From positions 32,001 through 96,000 of the forward strand of contig JBGPFC010000004.1 of the NCBI GenBank assembly GCA_041483195.1: 64,000 nt of DNA. Reading direction: 5' to 3'. Below are positions 3,106 to 32,540 of this stretch, piece by piece. Under the pieces are notes generated by a model that saw only the letters and a list, made by a program, of their open reading frames with translations, had not been told where the DNA came from and made no database searches. The number at the start of each line of letters is the position of its first letter. Positions within the stretch are counted from its first letter, which is position 1. A program made the translations under genes and the position numbers. This DNA comes from Candidatus Eiseniibacteriota bacterium (GTDB lineage: Bacteria; Eisenbacteria; RBG-16-71-46).

Positions 3106-3397
3106 GGGGGTGAGTGCGGGCGCGGCGCGTGATCGAGAACGTCGCTGCGGTGCTGGAGGCGGGCTGCATCGCTGTTGTGACGCTTCCAAAGGAGTTCTCG
3201 CTGCCGTTCGTGAAGGCGGCGTTCAAGTGCGGGCTGACGGGTAAGGCGCGCGATCCGGTGTTTGAGGATCGCCCCGCCTCGCATTCTGGAGGGCGATGAA
3301 ACTCTTCGAGGGCGTGGGGCTGGAGCGGTATTGCTCGCGATGCCTTGGGTCTCGATTATCAAGGCCACGGATGCGTCCAGAGCGTTGCAGACGCCAT

Positions 3398-4039
3398 TCA
3401 CTCTGGTTTCTTCGCCCCACGGGCAGCTGAATCGCGCACTCCCGGCGCAAGACCGCGCACAAGTCCACGAGCGCTGTCAGGACTTGAGCGGAGAACCGCC
3501 GCCGTCTCCAATGAGGGCGCTTGCCGTGGGATCACCGCTGTGTCCATCGCACCGACAAAGTCGCGCTCGATCGTAGGAGCAAGCCGCGGGACCGCGTAGT
3601 TGGCGCCCATGCTCGCGAGCACACCGAGGCCAAACACCACAGCGCCCCGAAGAAACTGACGCCACCGTGTCTTGTGTCGGACAAAGAATGGCATGGACCT
3701 GACTACCCACTCCCCCAGGGCAAATCCCAAGAGCACGCTTACAAACCCGAGCATCCAGGTGCCCGAGGCACGATAGGCCACAAGCATCCAGTAGAAGCTC
3801 AGGGTCGCCATCGTCGAAGCGAAGACCCATTTGAACGCCAGCAGCTTCGCACTATCCCGTCCTGGTGGCGGAAACGTCTCGAATGTCTCCTGCATGAGTA
3901 AGAGCGCCAGCAGGATGAAACAGCTCTCGAGCCACGCCGCTGACTTTCCCCGCCCGAGGCCCCGACTGAAGACCGCGGCTGCAATCGTGAAACTCGTCAC
4001 CGTGACAAGGGCCGAGTTGTTCCTGACCCACTCCCGCAA
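3398..4039 (-). CDS. hypothetical multi-pass membrane protein, possibly 5'-truncated
   Basis: About 5 hydrophobic segments. TTG start without a clear RBS, and the frame stays open upstream into the MITE at 4095. Confidence 0.45.
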   Translation of the reverse strand: MREWVRNNSALVTVTSFTIAAAVFSRGLGRGKSAAWLESCFILLALLLMQETFETFPPPGRDSAKLLAFKWVFASTMATLSFYWMLVAYRASGTWMLGFVSVLLGFALGEWVVRSMPFFVRHKTRWRQFLRGAVVFGLGVLASMGANYAVPRLAPTIERDFVGAMDTAVIPRQAPSLETAAVLRSSPDSARGLVRGLAPGVRDSAARGAKKPE

Positions 4040-4094
4040 TTCATGGCGAATGGGCAGAACCTGATCGGGGTCGACGATCAGGGGGCTCTCCTCG

Positions 4095-4170
4095 GAGCCT
4101 GTCCTGATTTCTGTGCAAGCCCCTTCCCGGTCACGCGGTCAGGCGCTTACACAAAATCAGGTACAGGCTC
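4095..4170. mobile_element. 76-bp MITE / internally deleted IS256-like remnant
   Basis: Imperfect ~26-bp terminal inverted repeats: GAGCCTGTCCTGATTTCTGTGCAAGC (4095-4120) and GCTTACACAAAATCAGGTACAGGCTC (4145-4170). The ends resemble IS256-family IRs. No target duplication seen. Confidence 0.6.
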
Positions 4171-4317
4171 GGCGATTTTCCGACACCCTTGGAGATTGGA
4201 GCTTTCACTACGCTGGCTCCCCGTGATGCCCCTGTGCCGCGACGCCCGCTCCGCCAGTTCGCCGAACCAAGAGGTTGCTCCGAGTTGTATGTTCCTCGAA
4301 GGCAAAATGCCGTCCGC

Positions 4318-5685
4318 CTAGAGTTCGCGCCGCAGCCGCTCCTCCGCGGCGCGGATTTCTCGGTTCAAACGCACCCAGAGCGCGCCGACCTGCTTCCGCA
4401 ACGGCATGCTTTCCGCCGCCAAGGCTGCGTCGCGTCCGTAGTGGATGAAGTTCCGATTCCGGGCGCGCTTCGGGTCTTGCGGTCCAAAAGTTCTGGCACT
4501 TCGACCCATGAACGAGAACTTCCGATACAACTTCCGCCGAAAGATCCTATCAATACGATTCCGCCGAGCCGCTGACTCTGCCGACCGAACACCATGCACC
4601 ATCTTCGCGATGAATCCCGCGACTGTTGCTTGCCTCAGCCGAATCGCATTCCCATCCCAGGCAAGGCCAAGGTACTGCAGAGAAACCGGCGACTTGTCCA
4701 GCACTTGCCCCTCTGTCGAGAGCCCAAGACCCGTCTGCCGACCAGCCGTTGATCGGAACGCCACCCGAATCGTCTTGGATTCCTGCACCGTAAGCTTAAC
4801 GCCTTCGACTGCCGAGATGACTGTAGCTTCGGCTTGTCTTGCGTATCCCGGCGGGCAGACCACCAGGATATCGTCGCTGTAGCGTCGATAGCTCGCCCCG
4901 AATTCGCCCAACTGTTCATGCAACGACTCGTCCCCTGCCAACATGTAGAGGTTCGCCAACACCGCGCTAATGGGCGAACCCTGAGGGATGCCGGCCGCCG
5001 AGCGGTTGCATTGAACGTGTGGGCGCAGCATGCTCCTGAACTCCTCAGGGCTGCATACGCGGGCGCCGGCGCGGCCTCGCCGGCGCGGAACGTCCCGACC
5101 CAGGAGATTGCGCACGCTTCCCCGATCGATCCAGCTGTACCGGGTGATTGCCCTGTAGATCGCGAAATGGTCTCTTGGGAGCGTTCGCCCCGTCCCCAAT
5201 ATGCCCAGCCAACGCGCTTTCAGAACACCGTGGTCAAGACTACCGAAGAAATCCTTGAGGTCGAGCGCGATCACATCGCAGTCGCCCGCATGTGCAATCT
5301 CTCGAAATGCGGCAACTGCAAAATCTACGTTGTTCCTCGGTGGACTCAGTTGACGATACGCAAGAACCGAAGCGCCAAAAGGACGCCGATAGTGCTGATC
5401 GAGCATCGTGGTGAGGTCAGAGGCGTACTTCGAGTAAATGTGGCTATCCATGTGGGCCGCAGAGCAGAGCTCACGCTGCTTGGGCTGACCCCGATGGCGC
5501 TTTTTCGTGTCAGGGTCCCGGACATAGCGTGGGGTAGTCTTCGTGAAGCGAAGAAATGGCCAGAACGCGTGTCTGGCGACACATTCGGGATCGACGCAAT
5601 AGGCGATGGCGCGGTCCGGGGCGACCGGCCGGTCGAAATGCGCGTATCCGCGCTGGCGGAACAACGGATGTCTCTCGGCGCTCAC
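4318..5685 (-). CDS. drt2: DRT2-type (UG2) antiviral reverse transcriptase, ~455 aa
   Basis: RT motifs LDLKDFFGSLDH, GIPQGSPISAVLANLYM, YRRYSDD, LQYLG. N-terminus HPLFRQRGYAHFDRPV...HAFWPFL...AAHMDSHIY and C-terminus RKLYRKFS...RNFIHYG match my recollection of Klebsiella DRT2 (PWFRKRGYLHFDEPV, SSHLDSHIY, KKLYARYS, RNFLTYG). GTG at 5685 is preferred over ATG 5727, which lies inside an RNA hairpin. Confidence 0.9.
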   Translation of the reverse strand: MSAERHPLFRQRGYAHFDRPVAPDRAIAYCVDPECVARHAFWPFLRFTKTTPRYVRDPDTKKRHRGQPKQRELCSAAHMDSHIYSKYASDLTTMLDQHYRRPFGASVLAYRQLSPPRNNVDFAVAAFREIAHAGDCDVIALDLKDFFGSLDHGVLKARWLGILGTGRTLPRDHFAIYRAITRYSWIDRGSVRNLLGRDVPRRRGRAGARVCSPEEFRSMLRPHVQCNRSAAGIPQGSPISAVLANLYMLAGDESLHEQLGEFGASYRRYSDDILVVCPPGYARQAEATVISAVEGVKLTVQESKTIRVAFRSTAGRQTGLGLSTEGQVLDKSPVSLQYLGLAWDGNAIRLRQATVAGFIAKMVHGVRSAESAARRNRIDRIFRRKLYRKFSFMGRSARTFGPQDPKRARNRNFIHYGRDAALAAESMPLRKQVGALWVRLNREIRAAEERLRREL

Positions 5686-5699
5686 GGATGATTTCCGAT

Positions 5700-5978
5700 G
5701 TAGCGGTGGAGGGCGGATCGACGGCATCCGCAGACGCCCTCCACCTCAAAGTTACCGAAGCACCGTGACGAAGCACTTCGAGTATGTCCACGCCCGTCGT
5801 CCTAGGACAATCGAAAGGAGCGTATGATCGTGATGCTGATCCTGCTCGTCGCGCTGATCGTCTCACCGTGGCCCGACTTCGGGCGGCAGGTGGCCGGCTG
5901 GGCCGGGTCCGCGTTGGTTGCGGCACTCACAGGCGAGTTGCAGCACACCCCTCCGCTTGAGCATCAACCCCAAGCGCG
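5700..5978 (-). ncRNA. DRT2-associated ncRNA (template + scaffold), ~280 nt
   Basis: Lies directly upstream of the RT and downstream of a sigma70 promoter. Stems (+ coordinates): 5954-5959/5971-5976, 5817-5826/5944-5954, 5871-5884, 5894-5906, 5785-5789/5805-5809, 5756-5760/5776-5780, 5705-5715/5735-5745. Loop-loop complement 5719-5724/5794-5799. Confidence 0.8.
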
Positions 5979-5985
5979 CAGGTAG
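5824..5985 (+). CDS. neo: Neo-like hidden ORF antisense to the DRT2 ncRNA (single genomic unit, 53 aa)
   Basis: AAAGGAG-cgt-ATG, then MIVMLILLVALIVSPWPDFGRQVAGWAGSALVAALTGELQHTPPLEHQPQARR*. Helix-Pro break-helix pattern, and the frame is stop-free across the predicted template. Below the ORF-track size cutoff. Confidence 0.6.
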   Translation: MIVMLILLVALIVSPWPDFGRQVAGWAGSALVAALTGELQHTPPLEHQPQARR

Positions 5986-6013
5986 AGTAAGTCCCGCGTT
6001 GGGCGCCGGTCAA
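5984..6013 (-). promoter_or_regulatory. sigma70-type promoter for ncRNA-drt2
   Basis: Minus strand TTGACC (6013-6008)-N18-TACTCT (5989-5984). The predicted TSS near 5977 falls at the base of the first hairpin. Confidence 0.7.
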
Positions 6014-6118
6014 GCACCTGATCAGCTGTTGGAGGCCAGGGACCCGAGCCGGGATTCCCTAGGCTCCATTCCTTAAGAGGGGACACCCCACGAGCTTGGG
6101 CACGTTAGAGCTACCGGT

Positions 6119-8317
6119 TCACTCAGCAAGGATCTCGTCCGCGAGATCGTCGAGGCCCGCGCGTGCGACAGGACCAACTTTCGTCTTCGCTCGGTTAATG
6201 TGATCCCGCACCCGGCGCCTGATCACGCGCTCCGGGAGATCCCGAATCCCCTCACGCACTGCCTCAGCCTCGTCCAGAATTTCCGGCGTCATGTAACGCA
6301 CAATACCAGCATCCATAATAAGGGGCAGGCGCTCTTCTGTGGCTTTTGTGACCCGTCGCCTAACTGGGCCAAACGCCAAGTAGTTCACGAGAAAGTCTGC
6401 GCTCAGAACCGGCGAGTCAGGCGCCGTCCCTTTCATGAGCGATCCGAGGCGCGGTCTGAGATCAAACGCGCGCCGATCGATAGTCAGCCACCACGCATCA
6501 TATCCGAATGGGGATGCCTTCTGCATCGACCGCAACTGTGTGATCCCACAATAGCATTCTACGTCGTGCTCCACCAAATGCGTGATAGCCATCTCATCAA
6601 TCAACATGTCCTTCGGTCTCCGACGCGCCTCATGAGCCTCATACCAGACCTGCTGCAGGGCGTTTCTTAGGTCCGCACCTGCTCTATCCCGCTCCTCGTG
6701 CAAGTCGCGACGCTGCACCCCAAACTCATCTTCGAGATAGCTCGCGATATCGTTCTCCGGCTGTTCGTCCCCACGAAAGTTTTCCAGCCAGCCCGCAAAC
6801 TCTCCCCGCGTGCGACCGCTGGCTGCGAAGCGGTCGAGCAAGTAGGGTACTCTTCCAATCCACTGCCCAGCCTTCATTCGTGCGCACGCCACAGCACGGT
6901 TCATGTGCCGCTCGATTTCTTCGATTACGCCGGCGGTCACGTAAAGCTCGATACCTGCCTCGCGCGCCGCTCGCATCATTCTCGTAAACCGTCCGCCTCC
7001 TTCTTCGTCAAGAGACTCTGCCAAGAGCGGCAACGCTATTGTCGTGTCGAGCCAGAGCCTTCCGCCAGAAAACATCTTCCCAACCGCCGCTTCGACATCT
7101 GGCGTTTGTCGCAAGAACGCGAGGAGTGTATGCGCATCGATCAGCGTGCGCAGATGCCCCCGAATCGCCGGGTCATCGCTAAGAACCACCTCGCTGACAC
7201 CACCCTCAAGTGCCGCCATCCAGTCCACGCCGTCGCGCTTTGGTAATGCGTTTGCCGCCAAGTCAGCCAGTGCTGCTGTCTTGAGATCGTCGCTTGGGGG
7301 CATCGTCGGCCCGCCGCTCTGCACGGCCAAGGCAAACGCCTGACTGCGCTGGAAGAGGACAGCTTCTGACGTTCTCCTCATAGCGGCAGCGAGGAGTCGG
7401 CTGTCCTCAGGTGCAGCAGTGCTGTCCTGCAAGGTCGCGTCAGCAAGATTCTGTATCGCATCCTGGAGCCTAGCTTCAGCAAGTGCCGCTGCAATCTTGA
7501 ATTCGGCCAAGCGCAAGAGCTCCTCATGACTCAGGCAGAACTCGTCGTCCTTCGGGTAATGCCTTATGGCCTTTTTTGCCAAGCGCCTCAGAGCTGACTC
7601 AACGTAGGGCGCAATATCCTTCGCGTCGTGCCCCGGGAGCACGGCGCACACTCGCTCCCGCACCGCAGCACGGCTAAGCCGGTGGTTCGGGTCGGTGTGC
7701 GCCAACGCCGAGCGCACAAGTGCCTCAAAGGCCAGCTTTGTTAGGCCCTTCTCTCTGATGTCGTCCTGCCACTGGAGGCCGAGGTAGGTGAGTGCCGCTA
7801 CGGCCTCGGTGCCCGTGAGATCAGTTGCCCCTCTCGGACGGAGACCGTAATCGACGAGCAGTGGCTCGACTATCACCCGAGCCAGTTCATCTGCCGCGGC
7901 CTCCCGGGCATGATCTGTGTTGACGCGCTCGATGAACCAGCGCAGATCGCGAACATCCAGTCCTAGCGAGAACTCCTTGCGAAGCCTGCGCTTCAATTCA
8001 TCGGCAGCTGCACCTATGTTCTGGTTGCACATGTAAACTAGCGCGATCGCTTGTGGATGCGTCTTCTTCAGACGCTGCGCTGTCTTTACAATCTTGTTCT
8101 CCCAATTCGCGGCGACCGAGTACTGTACGGCGACCTGCGGCTCGTGTTCAGGGGAGAATAGCTCGCTGTCACGACCTCCATCGCCGCTAGCCGCTGCCGT
8201 CGTGCGAAGTTCGGAGAATTCCGCGGCCAAGAATACGGACGACAAGTGCTCAAAACGCTCCCAATCAGAGGGCTGAAGCCTCTCCAACGCCAGCTGAAAG
8301 CGCCCGCTGTTCATCAT
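6119..8317 (-). CDS. hypothetical ~732 aa protein: N-terminal PD-(D/E)xK/Mrr-like nuclease domain + central PIN-like domain (candidate defence protein)
   Basis: GGAGG RBS before ATG 8317. N-terminal WERFEHL...GDGGRDSELF...VAVQYS (restriction-endonuclease-like). LWLDTTIALPLL...YVTAGVIEEIERH...EHDVEC...WWLTIDR (PIN-like acidic residues). Confidence 0.65.
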   Translation of the reverse strand: MMNSGRFQLALERLQPSDWERFEHLSSVFLAAEFSELRTTAAASGDGGRDSELFSPEHEPQVAVQYSVAANWENKIVKTAQRLKKTHPQAIALVYMCNQNIGAAADELKRRLRKEFSLGLDVRDLRWFIERVNTDHAREAAADELARVIVEPLLVDYGLRPRGATDLTGTEAVAALTYLGLQWQDDIREKGLTKLAFEALVRSALAHTDPNHRLSRAAVRERVCAVLPGHDAKDIAPYVESALRRLAKKAIRHYPKDDEFCLSHEELLRLAEFKIAAALAEARLQDAIQNLADATLQDSTAAPEDSRLLAAAMRRTSEAVLFQRSQAFALAVQSGGPTMPPSDDLKTAALADLAANALPKRDGVDWMAALEGGVSEVVLSDDPAIRGHLRTLIDAHTLLAFLRQTPDVEAAVGKMFSGGRLWLDTTIALPLLAESLDEEGGGRFTRMMRAAREAGIELYVTAGVIEEIERHMNRAVACARMKAGQWIGRVPYLLDRFAASGRTRGEFAGWLENFRGDEQPENDIASYLEDEFGVQRRDLHEERDRAGADLRNALQQVWYEAHEARRRPKDMLIDEMAITHLVEHDVECYCGITQLRSMQKASPFGYDAWWLTIDRRAFDLRPRLGSLMKGTAPDSPVLSADFLVNYLAFGPVRRRVTKATEERLPLIMDAGIVRYMTPEILDEAEAVREGIRDLPERVIRRRVRDHINRAKTKVGPVARAGLDDLADEILAE

Positions 8318-8690
8318 GTCGTCCCTCCAATCACAGCTAGATCCTGCGCCCTCGGCCACTCCATAGATATTCGAGGACGTAGTGGGGATCCTTGTCATGA
8401 GTCATTGGCCCTACCGTCGCGAGATGGTTTCGCCCCTCGCCTACGAAGAGTTCCGCGCGACGCAGATCGCGCTGCGATGGCATCCGCGCCCCGAATGATT
8501 CGACAGCGGTCCCAGTCTTCACCATAGCAAAGCGCGGGAGAGGTTCCCAGTCCGTCGGGCCTTCGCCTTCGAAACTTCGCGATGAACCAACTGATCGCTG
8601 CTCGGAGTTGTGTAGGTCGTGCTCGTCCGCGATTGCAAGACTGTCGGATTCAAGCCTTGTCTCAAGGCTGCCGCGTACGACTTCCATCTT

Positions 8691-9008
8691 CTACCCCTCC
8701 CCCCGCTTCTTCGCCAGCACGCCCTCCCACGCCTTCATCCGCCTCGCGATCTCCGCCTCGAATCCCTCCTGCGTCGGCTCGTAAAACCGACGCCCCGCGA
8801 GTTCATCCGGCAGGTGCGCCTGATCGGTGATCCGATCCGGGTCGTCGTGTGCGTACTGGTAGCCCGCGCCGTAGCCCAGGTCCTTCATTAGCCGCGTCGG
8901 CGCATTGCGGATCACGAGCGGCGGCGGCAGGCTGCCGCACTTCTCGACCTCCTCGTTCGCGCGTCCGAAGCCCGCGTACACCGCCTCGCTCTTGGGCGCG
9001 ACGGCCAG
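8691..9008 (-). pseudogene. rarA: orphan duplicate of the rarA 3' end (direct repeat of 11560-11869)
   Basis: 8699-9008 aligns ungapped with 11560-11869, with about 27 mismatches in 310 bp by hand count. Encodes LAVAPKS...PPPLVIRNAPTRLMKDLGYGAGYQYAHDD...KKRGEG* with no rarA 5' part. Confidence 0.9.
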
Positions 9009-9039
9009 CCCTTGCGAATCGCGCCCACTGCCAGCGCGG

Positions 9040-9942
9040 CTAAGCACGGTCCTTTGGCCGCCTGATGTGTCGGTCGATTGAATCTTGGAGGGACCTCGTC
9101 ATGCCTGCCTCCATCGCCACCGCCTGAACCAATCTGTTGCCGCGCTGGACCAGCGCACGCGCCAGATCCAGCCTCTCGGGCCCGAGCGTGTCACCATCCA
9201 TGTCACCCAGCAGGGAAACTAGCTTTTCCTGGTAAGCGACTACCTCTTCGGCAAGACCCGTCGTAATTCTCGGCCTTCTTGTGGCCTCGGAAACCTCCGC
9301 CAAGAGCGGCCTCAGCTCTCCGCTAAGGACCTCGCGCAGGACGTTCAGCGGAACCCCGCCCCCCCCGTCGCCGATCCTCTTCTCGACGCTCGCGACCGAG
9401 ATTCGAAGCTCCCCTACGGCTGCCAACACATCCGCGAGCTGCCGCTGCTCAGGATTGCCGCTTCGTCTCAGGAATTCGAGGTCCAGGGCGACCGAAATGG
9501 GGCTGTCCACTTCAGCCCCGGGCTGTTGCAGGCTCTTCATCTGCCGCTCAATCTCTCCTCTTGCCGCCTCCACGCTATCCAGATCGCGGTGGTCTACCTC
9601 CACGCTTCTGATGGCGGCAACATCGAATGGAATTCTTTCCCCTCGCTGTATTAGTTGGACGTATGGCTTTCTCAAGACATGGCGAATCGCCAATTCATAG
9701 AACACATTAGGATTGCGCTCCGTTAGGTCGGCGATCACGATTGGATCATCGACAATGTGTTGAATCACTTGTGTCGTTATCAGTCCCGGCTCACTAATCT
9801 GATCCGCGCGGATGGCATTATATCCACAGGCCCGCGCAGCTGGCTGGACAACGTACCGGAGGATTTGGTCCGATCGTCGCCGTGTATCTGAGTCCACGTC
9901 ACCAATCGGAGCTATGAATAGGCAAATCTTCTTGTCGTCCAT
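9040..9942 (-). CDS. nucleoside 2-deoxyribosyltransferase (NDT)-like domain protein with helical C-terminus
   Basis: GGAGG RBS. Motifs CLFIAPIG...RRRSD...RADQISEPGLIT...IVIADLTERNPNVFYELAIRH...IPFDV. Confidence 0.8.
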   Translation of the reverse strand: MDDKKICLFIAPIGDVDSDTRRRSDQILRYVVQPAARACGYNAIRADQISEPGLITTQVIQHIVDDPIVIADLTERNPNVFYELAIRHVLRKPYVQLIQRGERIPFDVAAIRSVEVDHRDLDSVEAARGEIERQMKSLQQPGAEVDSPISVALDLEFLRRSGNPEQRQLADVLAAVGELRISVASVEKRIGDGGGGVPLNVLREVLSGELRPLLAEVSEATRRPRITTGLAEEVVAYQEKLVSLLGDMDGDTLGPERLDLARALVQRGNRLVQAVAMEAGMTRSLQDSIDRHIRRPKDRA

Positions 9943-10047
9943 TGATCCACCTCCGAGACCTCTACGCCACCAGGCGCATGTGACCGCAGGCCCTCAAGCA
10001 GATCGCACGCTGAACGACTTGCTGCGGGGTCTGCACCGGTTCGACGC

Positions 10048-11193
10048 CTACAAAAAACTGACGCTCACGAGCGTCACGTCGTCCTCCTGTCCAATCTCGG
10101 CAGAGAACTCCGTCCCCGCTGAAATAAGCTCGTCGAGAAGCACCTCACCCCCCATTGGCCAACGCGCAATCTGCTCAACGACTCGCGTCGCGCCGAAGAA
10201 GTCGTCTGGGCCTCTAAGATCCAGCATTCCATCCGTGAGGAGAAGAAGTCGCTCGGAGCCCACAAACGGCACTACTTGTTTTACGTGCGGAAGCGATCGC
10301 AGCTCAGGCATCGGTGAAATCATTGGTCCACTTTCCGTCAGAGGCACCGGTGGCCAATCGACTCCCCACTTGTATGGTGACGGGTGGCCCGCGTTCACGT
10401 ACTCGAGCACCTCGTTGTCGGGATCAATGCGCATCGCTACGAGTGTCACAAAATGAGTTTCAGTGCACTGGGCGAGTGACTCAGAGACGCGATGGACGAC
10501 GGCGTCTGGGGCAAAGTCTTCGGCGTTCGAGCTGTGAAACGCCGACTTCACGACAGCGGTCAGCATCGCCGGAGCGAGGCCGTGGCCGGCGATGTCCGCA
10601 AGAATCAACGCGACGCGCGAGCCGTCAAGGACTGCATAGTCTGCGAAATCACCACCGAGGCGAAATCGCGGTTTATAGCGGCAGGACAGTGAGAGCCGCC
10701 CGACGTTGGGGAACTTGGCTGGAACGAGGCCAGCCTGCAGGGCTCGCGCATCTTCAACTTCTCTCTTGTACCGCTGCCCGATGTGATATTCCTCGAGGAG
10801 CCATCGTTGGCTGAGACAGCGCTCCACAATGGCGCATAGCTCTTCGTCGCCAAACGGTTTCTGCAGATAGTAGAATGCGGTCTTCTGGAGTGCTTGCATG
10901 AGCCGATCGCCGAGCGTCTTGTAACCGGTCATGAGGATCACGTCTACGTCCGGAAGGAGCAGCTTCAGTTGATCGAGGAGTTCAAACCCAGCACTGTCGC
11001 TTTGGCCAAGAACCACATCGAGCATGATGAGCTTCGGGCGGAATTCTCTAGCGAGGTCTGGCGCTGCTCGCCAAGAGGCTGTGGTGGCGAGGTCATGCTG
11101 ATCCTGCAGCGCGAGATCAATTCGATGAAGTAGCTTTGGGTCGTCGTCGACGACCAGGATCCGCGTTCGGCGAGGACGACCATCCTGAATCAT
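10048..11193 (-). CDS. response regulator receiver + PP2C/SpoIIE (RsbU-like) phosphatase
   Basis: REC domain (ILVVDDD, LIMLDV, YLQKPF) and PP2C motifs GGDFAD, ADIAGHG, VNAGHP, LLTDGM, EDDVTLV. Start uncertain (11193 vs 11319). Confidence 0.88.
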   Translation of the reverse strand: MIQDGRPRRTRILVVDDDPKLLHRIDLALQDQHDLATTASWRAAPDLAREFRPKLIMLDVVLGQSDSAGFELLDQLKLLLPDVDVILMTGYKTLGDRLMQALQKTAFYYLQKPFGDEELCAIVERCLSQRWLLEEYHIGQRYKREVEDARALQAGLVPAKFPNVGRLSLSCRYKPRFRLGGDFADYAVLDGSRVALILADIAGHGLAPAMLTAVVKSAFHSSNAEDFAPDAVVHRVSESLAQCTETHFVTLVAMRIDPDNEVLEYVNAGHPSPYKWGVDWPPVPLTESGPMISPMPELRSLPHVKQVVPFVGSERLLLLTDGMLDLRGPDDFFGATRVVEQIARWPMGGEVLLDELISAGTEFSAEIGQEDDVTLVSVSFL

Positions 11194-11536
11194 CCGCGGA
11201 AACTCCTGTGGGCTTGCGCGGCGAGTGAAAGTTGCATCGCCTTCGCCAGTTCCTCTCGGGGGTGCGCACGCACATTCGCTGGCACGGAGATTGACGGCAG
11301 AGACGCGGAAAGCAGCCAACGAGGAGAGATTGATGAGTTGAGCGCTGGCAGGATAGCATACAAAGTCAAATCACGCTGGAAGATCCTCATGAACTTGGCT
11401 GCCGAAGCTCTCGAAATCGGGGAGATTTGATTCGAGCGCGAGGAGCGGGGATCCTTCACCTCGGTCGATGCGCGGCGATTGACTGTGCGGAACTCACACG
11501 CATTCGATGGTTGGTGAAAACTGAGTTCACGCCAGT

Positions 11537-31269: not shown

Positions 31270-32540
31270 TCCGGGATCGGAGTGATGAGCAGGTACCGTC
31301 CGAAGCCCTCGCGATCTTCGAACACCAGCCTCCGATAGGGCCGGTTGTAGTACCAGATTTCCTGCTGCACGGTCTGCGAGCTCGCGGGCCGGGTCTCGAC
31401 CTGATCGGGCGGACCGAGCTTGATGTAGATCCTCCCCATGTCGGACCGCCATCCCGGGCCGAACCCCTGAAAATGCTGCTCCGCGTAATGCACCCGCCGG
31501 AAGAACTCGAGCATTGCCTCGTTGCGCGCAGTCTCCGGGGTGGGGTCGCGCCGGCGCCAGAATGCGTCCCAGCCTGCCGGCTGCTGCTCGGGGGGGAGCG
31601 CCCGCAGGGCCTCGATCTCACCCGCATCCGCGATGTAGCCGAGTGGCTCGAGCATGCGCTCGAACTCGCGCCCCCGTGGCGGACCGCTCTCCTCCACCTC
31701 GAACGAGCGCTCGACCCGCCAGCGCGAATGACCCTCGACCAGATCGAGCTGGAAGACATAGGAGCCGACGAAGAGCTCGGAGGCCGGCGGGCGGATGATC
31801 ACCGGCTGCGCCGATCGATCGACGCTCGCCTCCTGACTCCCGTTCGACAGCTCGTCCCCGCGCTCGTCGATGATCCGGTAGCGAAAGGAGTAGCGGCGCG
31901 GCCAGGAGCCGGGACGGCGGTCGAACACCGCGGCTCGCGCCGCGAGCCGCGAGGCATTCATGCCGAGCCGTCGCGTCGGCATCGCGACGAATGCCCCCGA
32001 CGAATCGCTCACCCCGAGGTCGAGGTCGGCGAACCCGACCGGCACCTTCGAGTAATCGGGCACCTCGATGCGCTGGCTGGCCGATGAGCCCTCATCCGCG
32101 CTCAAGTCGGCGACCGACACCCGCATGTCGTACCGGCCCGGGGGCAGCGCGAAGTCGCGCTTCTCGATCAGCGCCGCGTTCGGGGAGCGCGTCGCCTCGA
32201 AGCTGGGGACGGCGATCCGGCGTTCCCACACGTCTCCGTAGCTGCGTCCGCGGCCCTTCGGCTGGAACACGACGGCGAGCTCCACGCCCATCCCATAGCC
32301 CCGGTCGAGCCGAATCCACTGGACGTCCTGATAGGGCACGGTCACCGAGACCTGCATGGCGGGACGGCCGGCGGAATCGACCGAGACCGCGATGTCGGCG
32401 GTGAAGAAGGGGGCGCGATCCGCGCGCAACTGCGGAAAATCCAGAGCGGAAGACAACGATGGGGTCGCGGCCGGGATCAGGGCCATCGCGAAAACCACCG
32501 TCAGGTGGCGAGATACGGTCCGCAACATGGTCTTCCGCAC
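31266..32540 (-). CDS. GWxTD domain-containing protein
   Basis: FWRRRDPTPETARNE...RRVHYA...GWRSDMGRIYIKLGPPD...EIWYY; signal peptide. Confidence 0.88.
   Translation of the reverse strand: MRKTMLRTVSRHLTVVFAMALIPAATPSLSSALDFPQLRADRAPFFTADIAVSVDSAGRPAMQVSVTVPYQDVQWIRLDRGYGMGVELAVVFQPKGRGRSYGDVWERRIAVPSFEATRSPNAALIEKRDFALPPGRYDMRVSVADLSADEGSSASQRIEVPDYSKVPVGFADLDLGVSDSSGAFVAMPTRRLGMNASRLAARAAVFDRRPGSWPRRYSFRYRIIDERGDELSNGSQEASVDRSAQPVIIRPPASELFVGSYVFQLDLVEGHSRWRVERSFEVEESGPPRGREFERMLEPLGYIADAGEIEALRALPPEQQPAGWDAFWRRRDPTPETARNEAMLEFFRRVHYAEQHFQGFGPGWRSDMGRIYIKLGPPDQVETRPASSQTVQQEIWYYNRPYRRLVFEDREGFGRYLLITPIPE

Follow-up and report, generated by a model that had tools for sequence, protein, structure and literature searches.

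A divergent DRT2 reverse transcriptase with a predicted cis-encoded templating RNA and an in-frame stop codon at the predicted repeat junction

The 64,000-nucleotide (nt) stretch of contig JBGPFC010000004.1 analyzed here (positions 32,001 to 96,000, from a Candidatus Eiseniibacteriota bacterium; hereafter the window) carries on its minus strand an intact open reading frame (ORF) of 469 amino acids (aa) at 4318..5727, which in this longest form starts at ATG 5727, ends with a TAG codon and encodes a reverse transcriptase (RT). A gap of 391 nt (5728-6118) separates this ORF from the stop codon of a 759-aa ORF on the same strand, and the ORF listing contains no same-strand gene within the gap. 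In the proposed arrangement, the locus would be an anti-phage module of the DRT2 (UG2) type, in which the RT gene follows a non-coding RNA (ncRNA) of the same transcript that the RT binds and copies. The DRT2 mechanism was published in 2024 (Tang et al., 10.1101/2024.05.08.593200; Wilkinson et al., PMC12039810). We put the probability that the locus consists of a DRT2 RT with its own templating RNA at about 0.78.

The reverse transcriptase and its relatives

The RT matched the PADLOC Drt2 profile PDLC03757 over residues 18-462 (E 2.6e-121, 404 bits) and a second PADLOC Drt2 profile, PDLC02173, nearly as well (E 1.2e-108, 362 bits), whereas the next family, RT_UG17, matched the catalytic core only (E 3.9e-19, 66.8 bits). 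At E ≤ 0.01 there were matches to 77 PADLOC families (e.g., UG17, Drt3a, Drt9 and retron RTs), of which those other than Drt2 scored at most 66.8 bits, over the core. The best matches in the PDB were three DRT2 chain sequences (e.g., 9c0i and 9lje; E 1e-73 to 2e-71), whose residues 4-423 aligned with residues 18-458 of the query, while retron RTs gave E > 1e-4 in the same comparison. Pfam identified RVT_1 alone, with no fused effector domain. The polymerase motifs GIPQGSPIS and YRRYSDDIL are intact, and Y283, S284, D285 and D286 are invariant in 20/20 aligned homologues. The YSDD of the query aligns opposite the YCDD of the solved DRT2 chain, which is also the motif of Klebsiella DRT2 (PMC12039810). 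Compared to the solved DRT2, the query is longer by about 15 residues within 401-429 and has a few additional ones near 325-340, all in its C-terminal third. The RT is almost certainly a DRT2 enzyme, and the identity of the locus as a DRT2 module is secure.

When 8000 candidates were scored, 1341 proteins matched the RT at E ≤ 1e-20. The closest of them, P0002 to P0006, are 57, 56, 52, 52, and 52% identical to it, P0008 and P0009 are 45-47% identical, and proteins named "antiviral reverse transcriptase Drt2" in their sources are 35-37% identical. In a quick maximum-likelihood tree of 73 rows, built with no outgroup and for which a careful search was not completed, the RT fell into a 9-row clade with P0002-P0006, P0008, P0009 and L002 (Shimodaira-Hasegawa-like approximate likelihood-ratio test, SH-aLRT, 95), and the named Drt2 proteins and the loci with the Rfam motif RT-12 were in the other half of the tree. 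L002, a DRT2 locus of a Planctomycetota metagenome-assembled genome (JBGATX010000007.1), was the best relative from the genome scan, with an RT 46% identical to that of the window. Because P0002-P0006 are known as proteins only, L002 is the closest relative with DNA. Nothing above 37% identity was found among the matches listed in the metagenome scan, and nothing above 34% in viral contigs.

A preliminary description of this DNA, made from the sequence alone, had proposed a divergent DRT2 with QGSPIS and YSDD motifs, the latter in place of the YCDD of Klebsiella, and with extra C-terminal insertions, a reading that a clustering of the RT with retrons, group II introns or another UG clade would have contradicted. 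The profile scores, the alignments and, with the limits of the quick tree, the phylogeny that it had named as a check all bear this out. Its suggestion of a probably uncultured lineage also agrees with the distribution of the locus DNA, for which the 23 DNA runs listed are sediment metagenomes only; none of the sequencing runs searched that contained the locus was an RNA run.

The predicted RNA and the start of the RT gene

The DNA upstream of the RT gene probably specifies a cis-encoded templating RNA. This ncRNA, predicted from its position and from comparison with L002, would be about 290 nt long (5686..5978, minus strand), with transcription predicted to start near 5978, and would comprise a 5' domain, a template and a 3' scaffold. 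The regions upstream of the RT in the window and in L002 are collinear (z 3.7); the alignment score was reached by none of 300 dinucleotide shuffles. As far as comparison can tell, this collinearity appears to be stronger evidence for a functional RNA than the hairpin pattern described below. The 5' domain (5911..5978, minus strand) would contain a local hairpin at 5976-5954 and, more tentatively, a closing helix ending at 5913-5909 that abuts the template, according to a fold of 5981-5900 and a two-sequence RNAalifold prediction with L002. The latter prediction also contained a long-range helix (5978-5967/5918-5910), which was kept as a hint only: its probability in the full-length ensemble is zero and its formation costs about 8 kcal/mol.

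We noticed a long hairpin in the presumed 3' scaffold (5705..5745, minus strand), read from the sequence and recovered by a pattern match, in which the outer helix GGTGGAGG/CCTCCACC is followed by an internal loop GCGTCT, an inner helix GCGGAT/ATCCGC and a loop GCCGTCG. The corresponding loop in L002 is GCCGTCA. A long two-helix hairpin with a GCCGC loop is the hallmark of the Rfam motifs RT-12 (RF03016) and RT-13 (RF03017). Among 20 related loci, RT-12 was found directly upstream of the RT in L094, and RT-13 in L046, L060, and L072. In L171, a locus of a Photobacterium plasmid, RT-12 at 549-661 precedes an annotated drt2 gene starting at 680. Given that both motifs stand directly upstream of DRT2 RTs, we conclude that they are the 3' scaffolds of DRT2 ncRNAs. 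It should be noted that Rfam describes them merely as "RNA" upstream of RT genes; the motif lies at 2856-2973 in L094 and at about 2901-2972 in L046, L060 and L072.

To count such hairpins, a pattern with a GCCGY loop, an inner helix of at least 4 pairs and an outer helix of at least 5 pairs was placed 25-140 nt before a fixed RT residue. It was found on the sense strand in 24/144 sequences (143 related loci plus the upstream stretch of the window), compared to 1/144 on the antisense strand, 9/715 in windows inside RT genes and 5/144 further upstream. The helix sequences vary between loci, and RNAalifold predicted 22 pairs in eight RT-12-type loci, 15 of them with compensatory changes. The pattern count and its controls replaced an RNAalifold run on 22 hairpin segments aligned with MAFFT, which returned 0 pairs from an alignment that was out of register. 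The window hairpin is of the same build as that of RT-12, and the window has a 14-mer similar to the one that opens RT-12. The window differs in that it reaches no reportable score for either RT-12 or RT-13 and in that one 9-bp hairpin stands where RT-12 has two small hairpins. Its predicted RNA is of a different, uncurated subtype shared with L002.

The putative promoter of the transcript of ncRNA and RT, read from the sequence, consists of TTGACC (6013-6008), 18 nt and TACTCT (5989-5984), i.e., 5984..6013 on the minus strand. A 16-mer, GTGCTTGACCGGCGCC (6017-6002, minus strand), recurs unchanged upstream of the L094 DRT2 RNA (E 0.006 by blastn-short). This 16-mer includes the putative -35 box, its copy in L094 (about 2664-2679) lies at a similar distance from the RNA and forms one arm of a perfect hairpin, and it is common to the two loci though their RTs are only about 32% identical.

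Several results weigh against a promoter-driven, structured RNA at this site. A scan of 4000-6500 with the sigma-70 consensus found 0 sites, where shuffles gave 0.6 ± 0.8, and TACTCT matches TATAAT at 3/6 positions only. The minimum free energy of the 301 nt folded (-127.2 kcal/mol) is close to that of shuffled sequences (-122 ± 5.4 kcal/mol; z -0.96), of which 17/100 were equal or better. Rfam searches of 4000-6500 (E ≤ 1) and 5640-6020 (E ≤ 10) returned only a chance match to mir-943 (E 2.5). A covariance model (R1) built from eight RT-12-type RNAs, with the window left out, found nothing at the locus when the 64 kb were searched with default filters, its match at 8096-8134 (E 1.4) being unrelated. 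With filters off, the hairpin was the best local match (model positions 67-107), scoring 5.6 bits (E 0.13 in 701 nt). In the window, the GC content of which is 69%, there are 92 matches to the loose hairpin pattern; a strict pattern, which asks for at least 6 and at least 8 pairs, has two, under thresholds set after the hairpin had been seen.

The preliminary description therefore fares less evenly here, where it had claimed a complete module of promoter, structured ncRNA of about 280 nt and RT. The letters and spacing of the promoter are as it gave them, yet they amount to a merely plausible sequence in view of the consensus scan. The folding energy lends no weight to a structured stretch, while the comparative hairpin and the collinearity with L002 do. 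The extent from about 5978 to about 5690 would fit the comparative anatomy of such RNAs, although the Infernal-type search that it had proposed gave no significant match, either to Rfam or to our own model. The word "complete" is not borne out, and the predicted unit lacks the stop-free neo frame of the published mechanism (see below).

The RT more likely starts at GTG 5685 (4318..5685, minus strand, 455 aa) than at ATG 5727, and the RNA would run to about 5686. The ATG sits at the boundary of inner stem and loop in the scaffold hairpin, which makes the GTG the likelier start, and the GGAGGG found 9 nt upstream of the ATG consists of bases that are also part of the hairpin. The shorter frame is consistent with the PDB alignment, in which residue 4 of the DRT2 chain aligns with residue 18 of the window RT, where the alignment begins, and with the N-termini of homologues. 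The motif YAHFD was found in 10 of the 12 sequences listed, and in five of these 10 homologues it stands after no more than 12-15 residues, where a start at GTG 5685 leaves 13; the likely start of the L002 RT lies 7 codons before residue 23. The recorded N-termini of P0002 and P0005 contain KDAVDP and that of P0008 contains NDAVSRVP, which are translations of the hairpin loop region, and KDAVDP is the loop region of the window read in another frame. Thus, the hairpin is probably conserved in P0002 and P0005, to judge from their protein sequences. The recorded N-termini of P0002, P0005, and P0008 are over-extended into the ncRNA scaffold, from which it follows that longest-ORF calls in this DRT2 clade are systematically too long at the 5' end. 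The longest-ORF start of such RT genes can therefore run into the RNA scaffold, and the same error stands in the database entries of the closest homologues.

The antisense frame, the predicted template and the stop at the predicted junction

On the plus strand, opposite the predicted RNA, a Shine-Dalgarno (SD) sequence AAAGGAG (5814-5820) is followed by ATG 5824; the frame opened there reads MIVMLILLVALIVSPWPDFGRQVAGWAGS and, on the chromosome, runs on as far as TAG 5983-5985. This antisense ORF (5824..5985, plus strand, from the ORF list) encodes 53 aa, and the gene caller recorded a 50-aa form of it from ATG 5833 (P0121). The GC content at third codon positions (GC3) of 5824-5910 is 28/29 in the ATG frame (P about 3e-4, given the local GC content); the two other frames reach 20/29 and 14/29. 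Past 5910, the GC3 of the ATG frame is only 16/24, as expected if coding ends there. Residues 1-13 of the peptide have a mean Kyte-Doolittle value of 3.61. On the sense strand of relatives, CAT, CTCC, the complement of a TATAAT-like box and a GCGGC motif form a layout that recurs upstream of many RT genes, and the window and L094 share a 15-nt match where both frames read GWAG. In the published system, the gene neo is antisense to the RNA (10.1101/2024.05.08.593200; PMC12039810), and here the SD and ATG with a hydrophobic frame of GC3 28/29 appear to mark a neo proto-gene.

[quoted passage not shown] This rule of repeat and period was applied to four comparators and then to the window. It gave a repeat AGAU and a unit of 111 nt for the annotated drt2 of L171 (one open frame, with TATAAT and TTGACA boxes), ACA and 99 nt for the RT-12 locus L094 (SD-ATG frame open), AGCAAU and 78 nt for the related locus L085 (frame open) and AUGGA and 99 nt for L002 (ATG frame open). 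In 4/4 comparators the 3' copy of the repeat lies within the first bases of the RT-12-type opening motif; those of RT-12 itself, UAACA, contain the 3' jump repeat. The counterpart in the window is the 14-mer UAGGACGACGGGCG (5804-5791), aligned by eye with the RT-12 start UAACAuUuGCGGCg. The predicted template of the window is accordingly placed, by homology, at 5803..5910 on the minus strand (108 nt), with GGAC at its 5' end (5910-5907) and again just 3' of it (5802-5799). The period of 108 nt is divisible by 3, and the 5' GGAC lies opposite the 5' copy of the L002 repeat in the alignment. Counted from the aligned ATG (ATG 5833 of the window), both loci have 26 codons up to the junction, both segments are hydrophobic and end with TCC (Ser), and 9/26 residues are identical.

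We give this mapping of the template, made by sequence comparison, slightly better than even odds. The jump repeat is only 4 nt, and its placement depends on one relative, with a template identity of 45% (35/78), and on the 14-mer aligned by eye, all of which counts against it. A generic finder of neo units, which asked for an SD-ATG, a flanking repeat of 4 nt or more and a frame open round the circle, identified candidates in 71/144 sequences, compared to 12-19/144 in five shuffled sets and 32/144 on the opposite strand. It missed the hand-verified L094 and L002 and is too noisy to decide the case of the window, where its sole solution (141 nt, GAGC) splits the SD from the ATG.

In the cDNA (complementary DNA) sense, the predicted unit (5803..5910, plus strand) begins with TAG 5803-5805 and a -10-like GACAAT (5806-5811), followed by the SD, ATG 5824 and 29 codons to TCC 5908-5910; GTG 5830 and ATG 5833 are further starts. 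When the 108 nt are closed into a circle, frame A reads a stop followed by DNRKERMIVMLILLVALIVSPWPDFGRQVAGWAGS, as TAG 5803-5805 is in frame with ATG 5824. Frame B has several stops, and frame C, the sole open frame, has no ATG and no start preceded by an SD (GC3 14/29). Each repeat would therefore encode a finite peptide of 29 aa rather than a never-ending ORF. The TAG is covered with 0 differences in contigs of two other samples (X3, 5550-6200; X7, 5772-5922), so it is no assembly slip. Contigs of X3, X6, X7, and X8 are identical to the locus and contain no repeat joints, rare repeat junctions being such as contigs cannot reveal. Amber suppression was considered and rejected, as the anticodon CUA occurs in 0/63 tRNAs. 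A conserved UA of the RNA gives rise, in all five loci (the window, L094, L085, L171, and L002), to a TAG or TAA that the cDNA unit spans or has at its start; relative to the start codon, this stop lies in another frame in the four relatives and in the same frame in the window.

Should the template be mapped correctly, transcription from near 5978 would yield an RNA whose 3' scaffold, with the GCCGUCG-loop hairpin at 5745-5705, holds the RT. The RT would copy the 108-nt template (5910-5803) and would jump from the 5' GGAC back to the 3' GGAC, thereby producing head-to-tail cDNA repeats. Each double-stranded repeat would contain an SD, an ATG and a very hydrophobic frame of 29 codons ending at the junction TAG, so that the array would be a series of tandem minigenes for a short membrane-type peptide and not one never-ending ORF. 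The intact RT, the strong codon signature and the unit length in a multiple of 3 are the reasons for reading the finite peptide as a working effector, which we do tentatively and with the odds somewhat against it. Slightly more doubtful is the wider proposal of a DRT2 subtype in which rolling-circle synthesis yields an array of complete minigenes, each with ribosome-binding site, start and stop, for a membrane-active peptide of 29 residues whose toxicity would come from gene dosage and not from polymer length. The window peptide, with about 30 residues and one very hydrophobic N-terminal stretch, resembles in general build the short hydrophobic toxins of type I toxin-antitoxin systems and would do harm via the membrane if produced in quantity; it differs in that no antisense-RNA antitoxin logic applies here and in that expression would need an RT-built gene array.

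The locus resembles the Klebsiella module (KpnDRT2) in an RT of the same family over the whole length (E 1e-73), in a single RT gene after about 280-290 nt of non-coding DNA, in the long 3'-scaffold hairpin, in the antisense SD and ATG within the presumed template and in short direct repeats with a unit length in a multiple of 3. It differs in having YSDD and about 15 more residues within 401-429, and GGAC repeats with a 108-nt unit instead of ACA and 120 nt. The window peptide is strongly hydrophobic, whereas Neo is described as helical repeats with no known domain (10.1101/2024.05.08.593200; PMC12039810). The remaining differences, which also count against a working module, concern the junction. 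Where relatives carry TATAAT-like and TTGACA boxes, the junction of the window reads TGGCCG, 17 nt and GACAAT (3/6 and 4/6 matches), and no -35/-10 pair is readily recognizable across it. The TAG occurs in frame once per repeat, and the stop-free neo frame of the published mechanism is thus absent from the predicted unit. L002 shares with the window the clade, the loop type (GCCGUCA vs. GCCGUCG) and the hydrophobic segment and differs in its 5-nt repeat, its 99-nt unit with an ATG frame open round the circle and no SD, and its linker of 7 codons, which in the window has 10 (i.e., is 9 nt longer) and contains the TAG in frame.

It is fairly improbable that the locus is a canonical DRT2 with a never-ending neo whose real jump sites lie elsewhere, leaving TAG 5803-5805 outside the repeat. 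Such a mis-mapped junction would agree with the shortness of the repeat, with the open frames of 4/4 comparators, with the lack of a stem like the described SL2 between the 3' copy of the repeat and the 5' flank (10.1101/2024.05.08.593200), and with frame A being open on the chromosome from 5806 to 5982. Indeed, among 235 candidate units enumerated with a repeat of at least 2 nt, 11 with a repeat of at least 3 nt avoid the TAG and keep frame A open, and one of these (5810-5947, 138 nt) would set TTGCAG 17 nt before TATGAT. All 11, however, start at or beyond 5807, inside or past the -10-like box and the SD and away from the jump-site position of L085, L094, L171 and L002, and some open units are expected by chance among 235. 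A unit beginning no later than 5803 must, if its length is divisible by 3, include the TAG in frame A, and the fall of GC3 after 5910 is what an end of coding at the predicted junction would produce.

No more probable is a crippled DRT2, in which RT and RNA are intact, the stop makes the array harmless and the system is decaying. In Klebsiella, defence was lost when a stop codon was placed in the template, and toxicity grew with repeat number (PMC12039810). An array with a stop in every repeat may therefore no longer function, which counts against a functional finite peptide. The open frames of the relatives and the lack of an evident junction promoter are in line with decay, as is a recent arrival for which selection is not required: the module is present once in its own genome and in 1/206 genomes of the phylum, i.e., its own, with matches in 0/205 others, and it lies in a low-GC stretch. 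On the other side, the RT has kept an uninterrupted frame and all its motifs, the unit length remains divisible by 3, the peptide frame retains a GC3 of 28/29, and the TAG is also present in contigs of other samples and arises from the register of the conserved UA rather than from an evident point mutation in an otherwise open frame.

Very improbable is that the antisense ORF is an ordinary chromosomal gene for a small membrane protein of 50-53 aa, unrelated to the RT, with the spacer as a 5' leader. Its strong SD and ATG, the recorded protein P0121 and the hydrophobic N-terminus would suit such a gene, but a word-based search for homologues of 29-93 aa returned only the ORF itself among 2 candidates, the antisense SD-ATG layout repeats upstream of unrelated DRT2 genes, GC3 falls over the last 24 codons and the plus strand of 4000-6500 has no called promoter-like site. 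An assignment of the RT to a different class (a retron, a group II intron, a CRISPR-associated RT or another UG/DRT clade) can be practically discounted, as the matches to many RT families are weak and confined to the catalytic core where the Drt2 profiles and solved DRT2 chains match at full length, and Rfam identified no intron RNA or retron msr/msd family.

To our knowledge, DRT2 is the sole known case of a cell writing a gene that is absent from its genome, and all tested examples encode a stop-free repeat protein. The locus thus offers a clonable example from a divergent clade, with an intact RT, a scaffold hairpin, a codon-biased hydrophobic frame and a stop at the predicted junction. 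If the module defends, the DRT2 strategy can do without a never-ending frame; if it fails to defend, the locus is a natural knock-out from which the first features to decay can be read. Tang et al. report that divergent DRT2 clades have RNAs in which Neo is hard to annotate (10.1101/2024.05.08.593200). No later literature on stop-containing neo units was found in a search that the clade-wise supplementary calls of Tang et al. lay outside.

Genomic surroundings

The GC content of the region from about 3300 to 11400 is 0.55-0.63, compared to 0.65-0.73 outside it. The GC3 of the RT gene (0.68) and of the 759-aa ORF (0.66) is low compared to that of host housekeeping genes (0.89-0.90), which suggests that the stretch with the module is acquired DNA. 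Neither the 759-aa neighbor nor the 213-aa neighbor matched Pfam or PADLOC. By tblastn, both direct neighbors were found only in the 2 self loci among 162 loci (0/160 others); their failure to recur beside other DRT2 genes fits a stand-alone pair of RT and RNA.

The DRT2 module is immediately preceded, on its own strand, by the 759-aa ORF (6119-8398, minus strand). The nearest Atlas clusters of its product are unnamed ("hypothetical protein", about 700-735 aa, feature score 0.98), and this ORF may be a defence gene of its own within the acquired stretch. A 300-aa ORF at 9040-9942 (minus strand) has a weak PADLOC match to a TIR effector over residues 23-140 (E 2.8e-7) and no Pfam match. Together with the DRT2 module, this TIR-like ORF hints at a small defence island within the low-GC stretch, at the edge of which (10048-11319, minus strand) a response-regulator receiver is fused to a SpoIIE/PP2C phosphatase domain.

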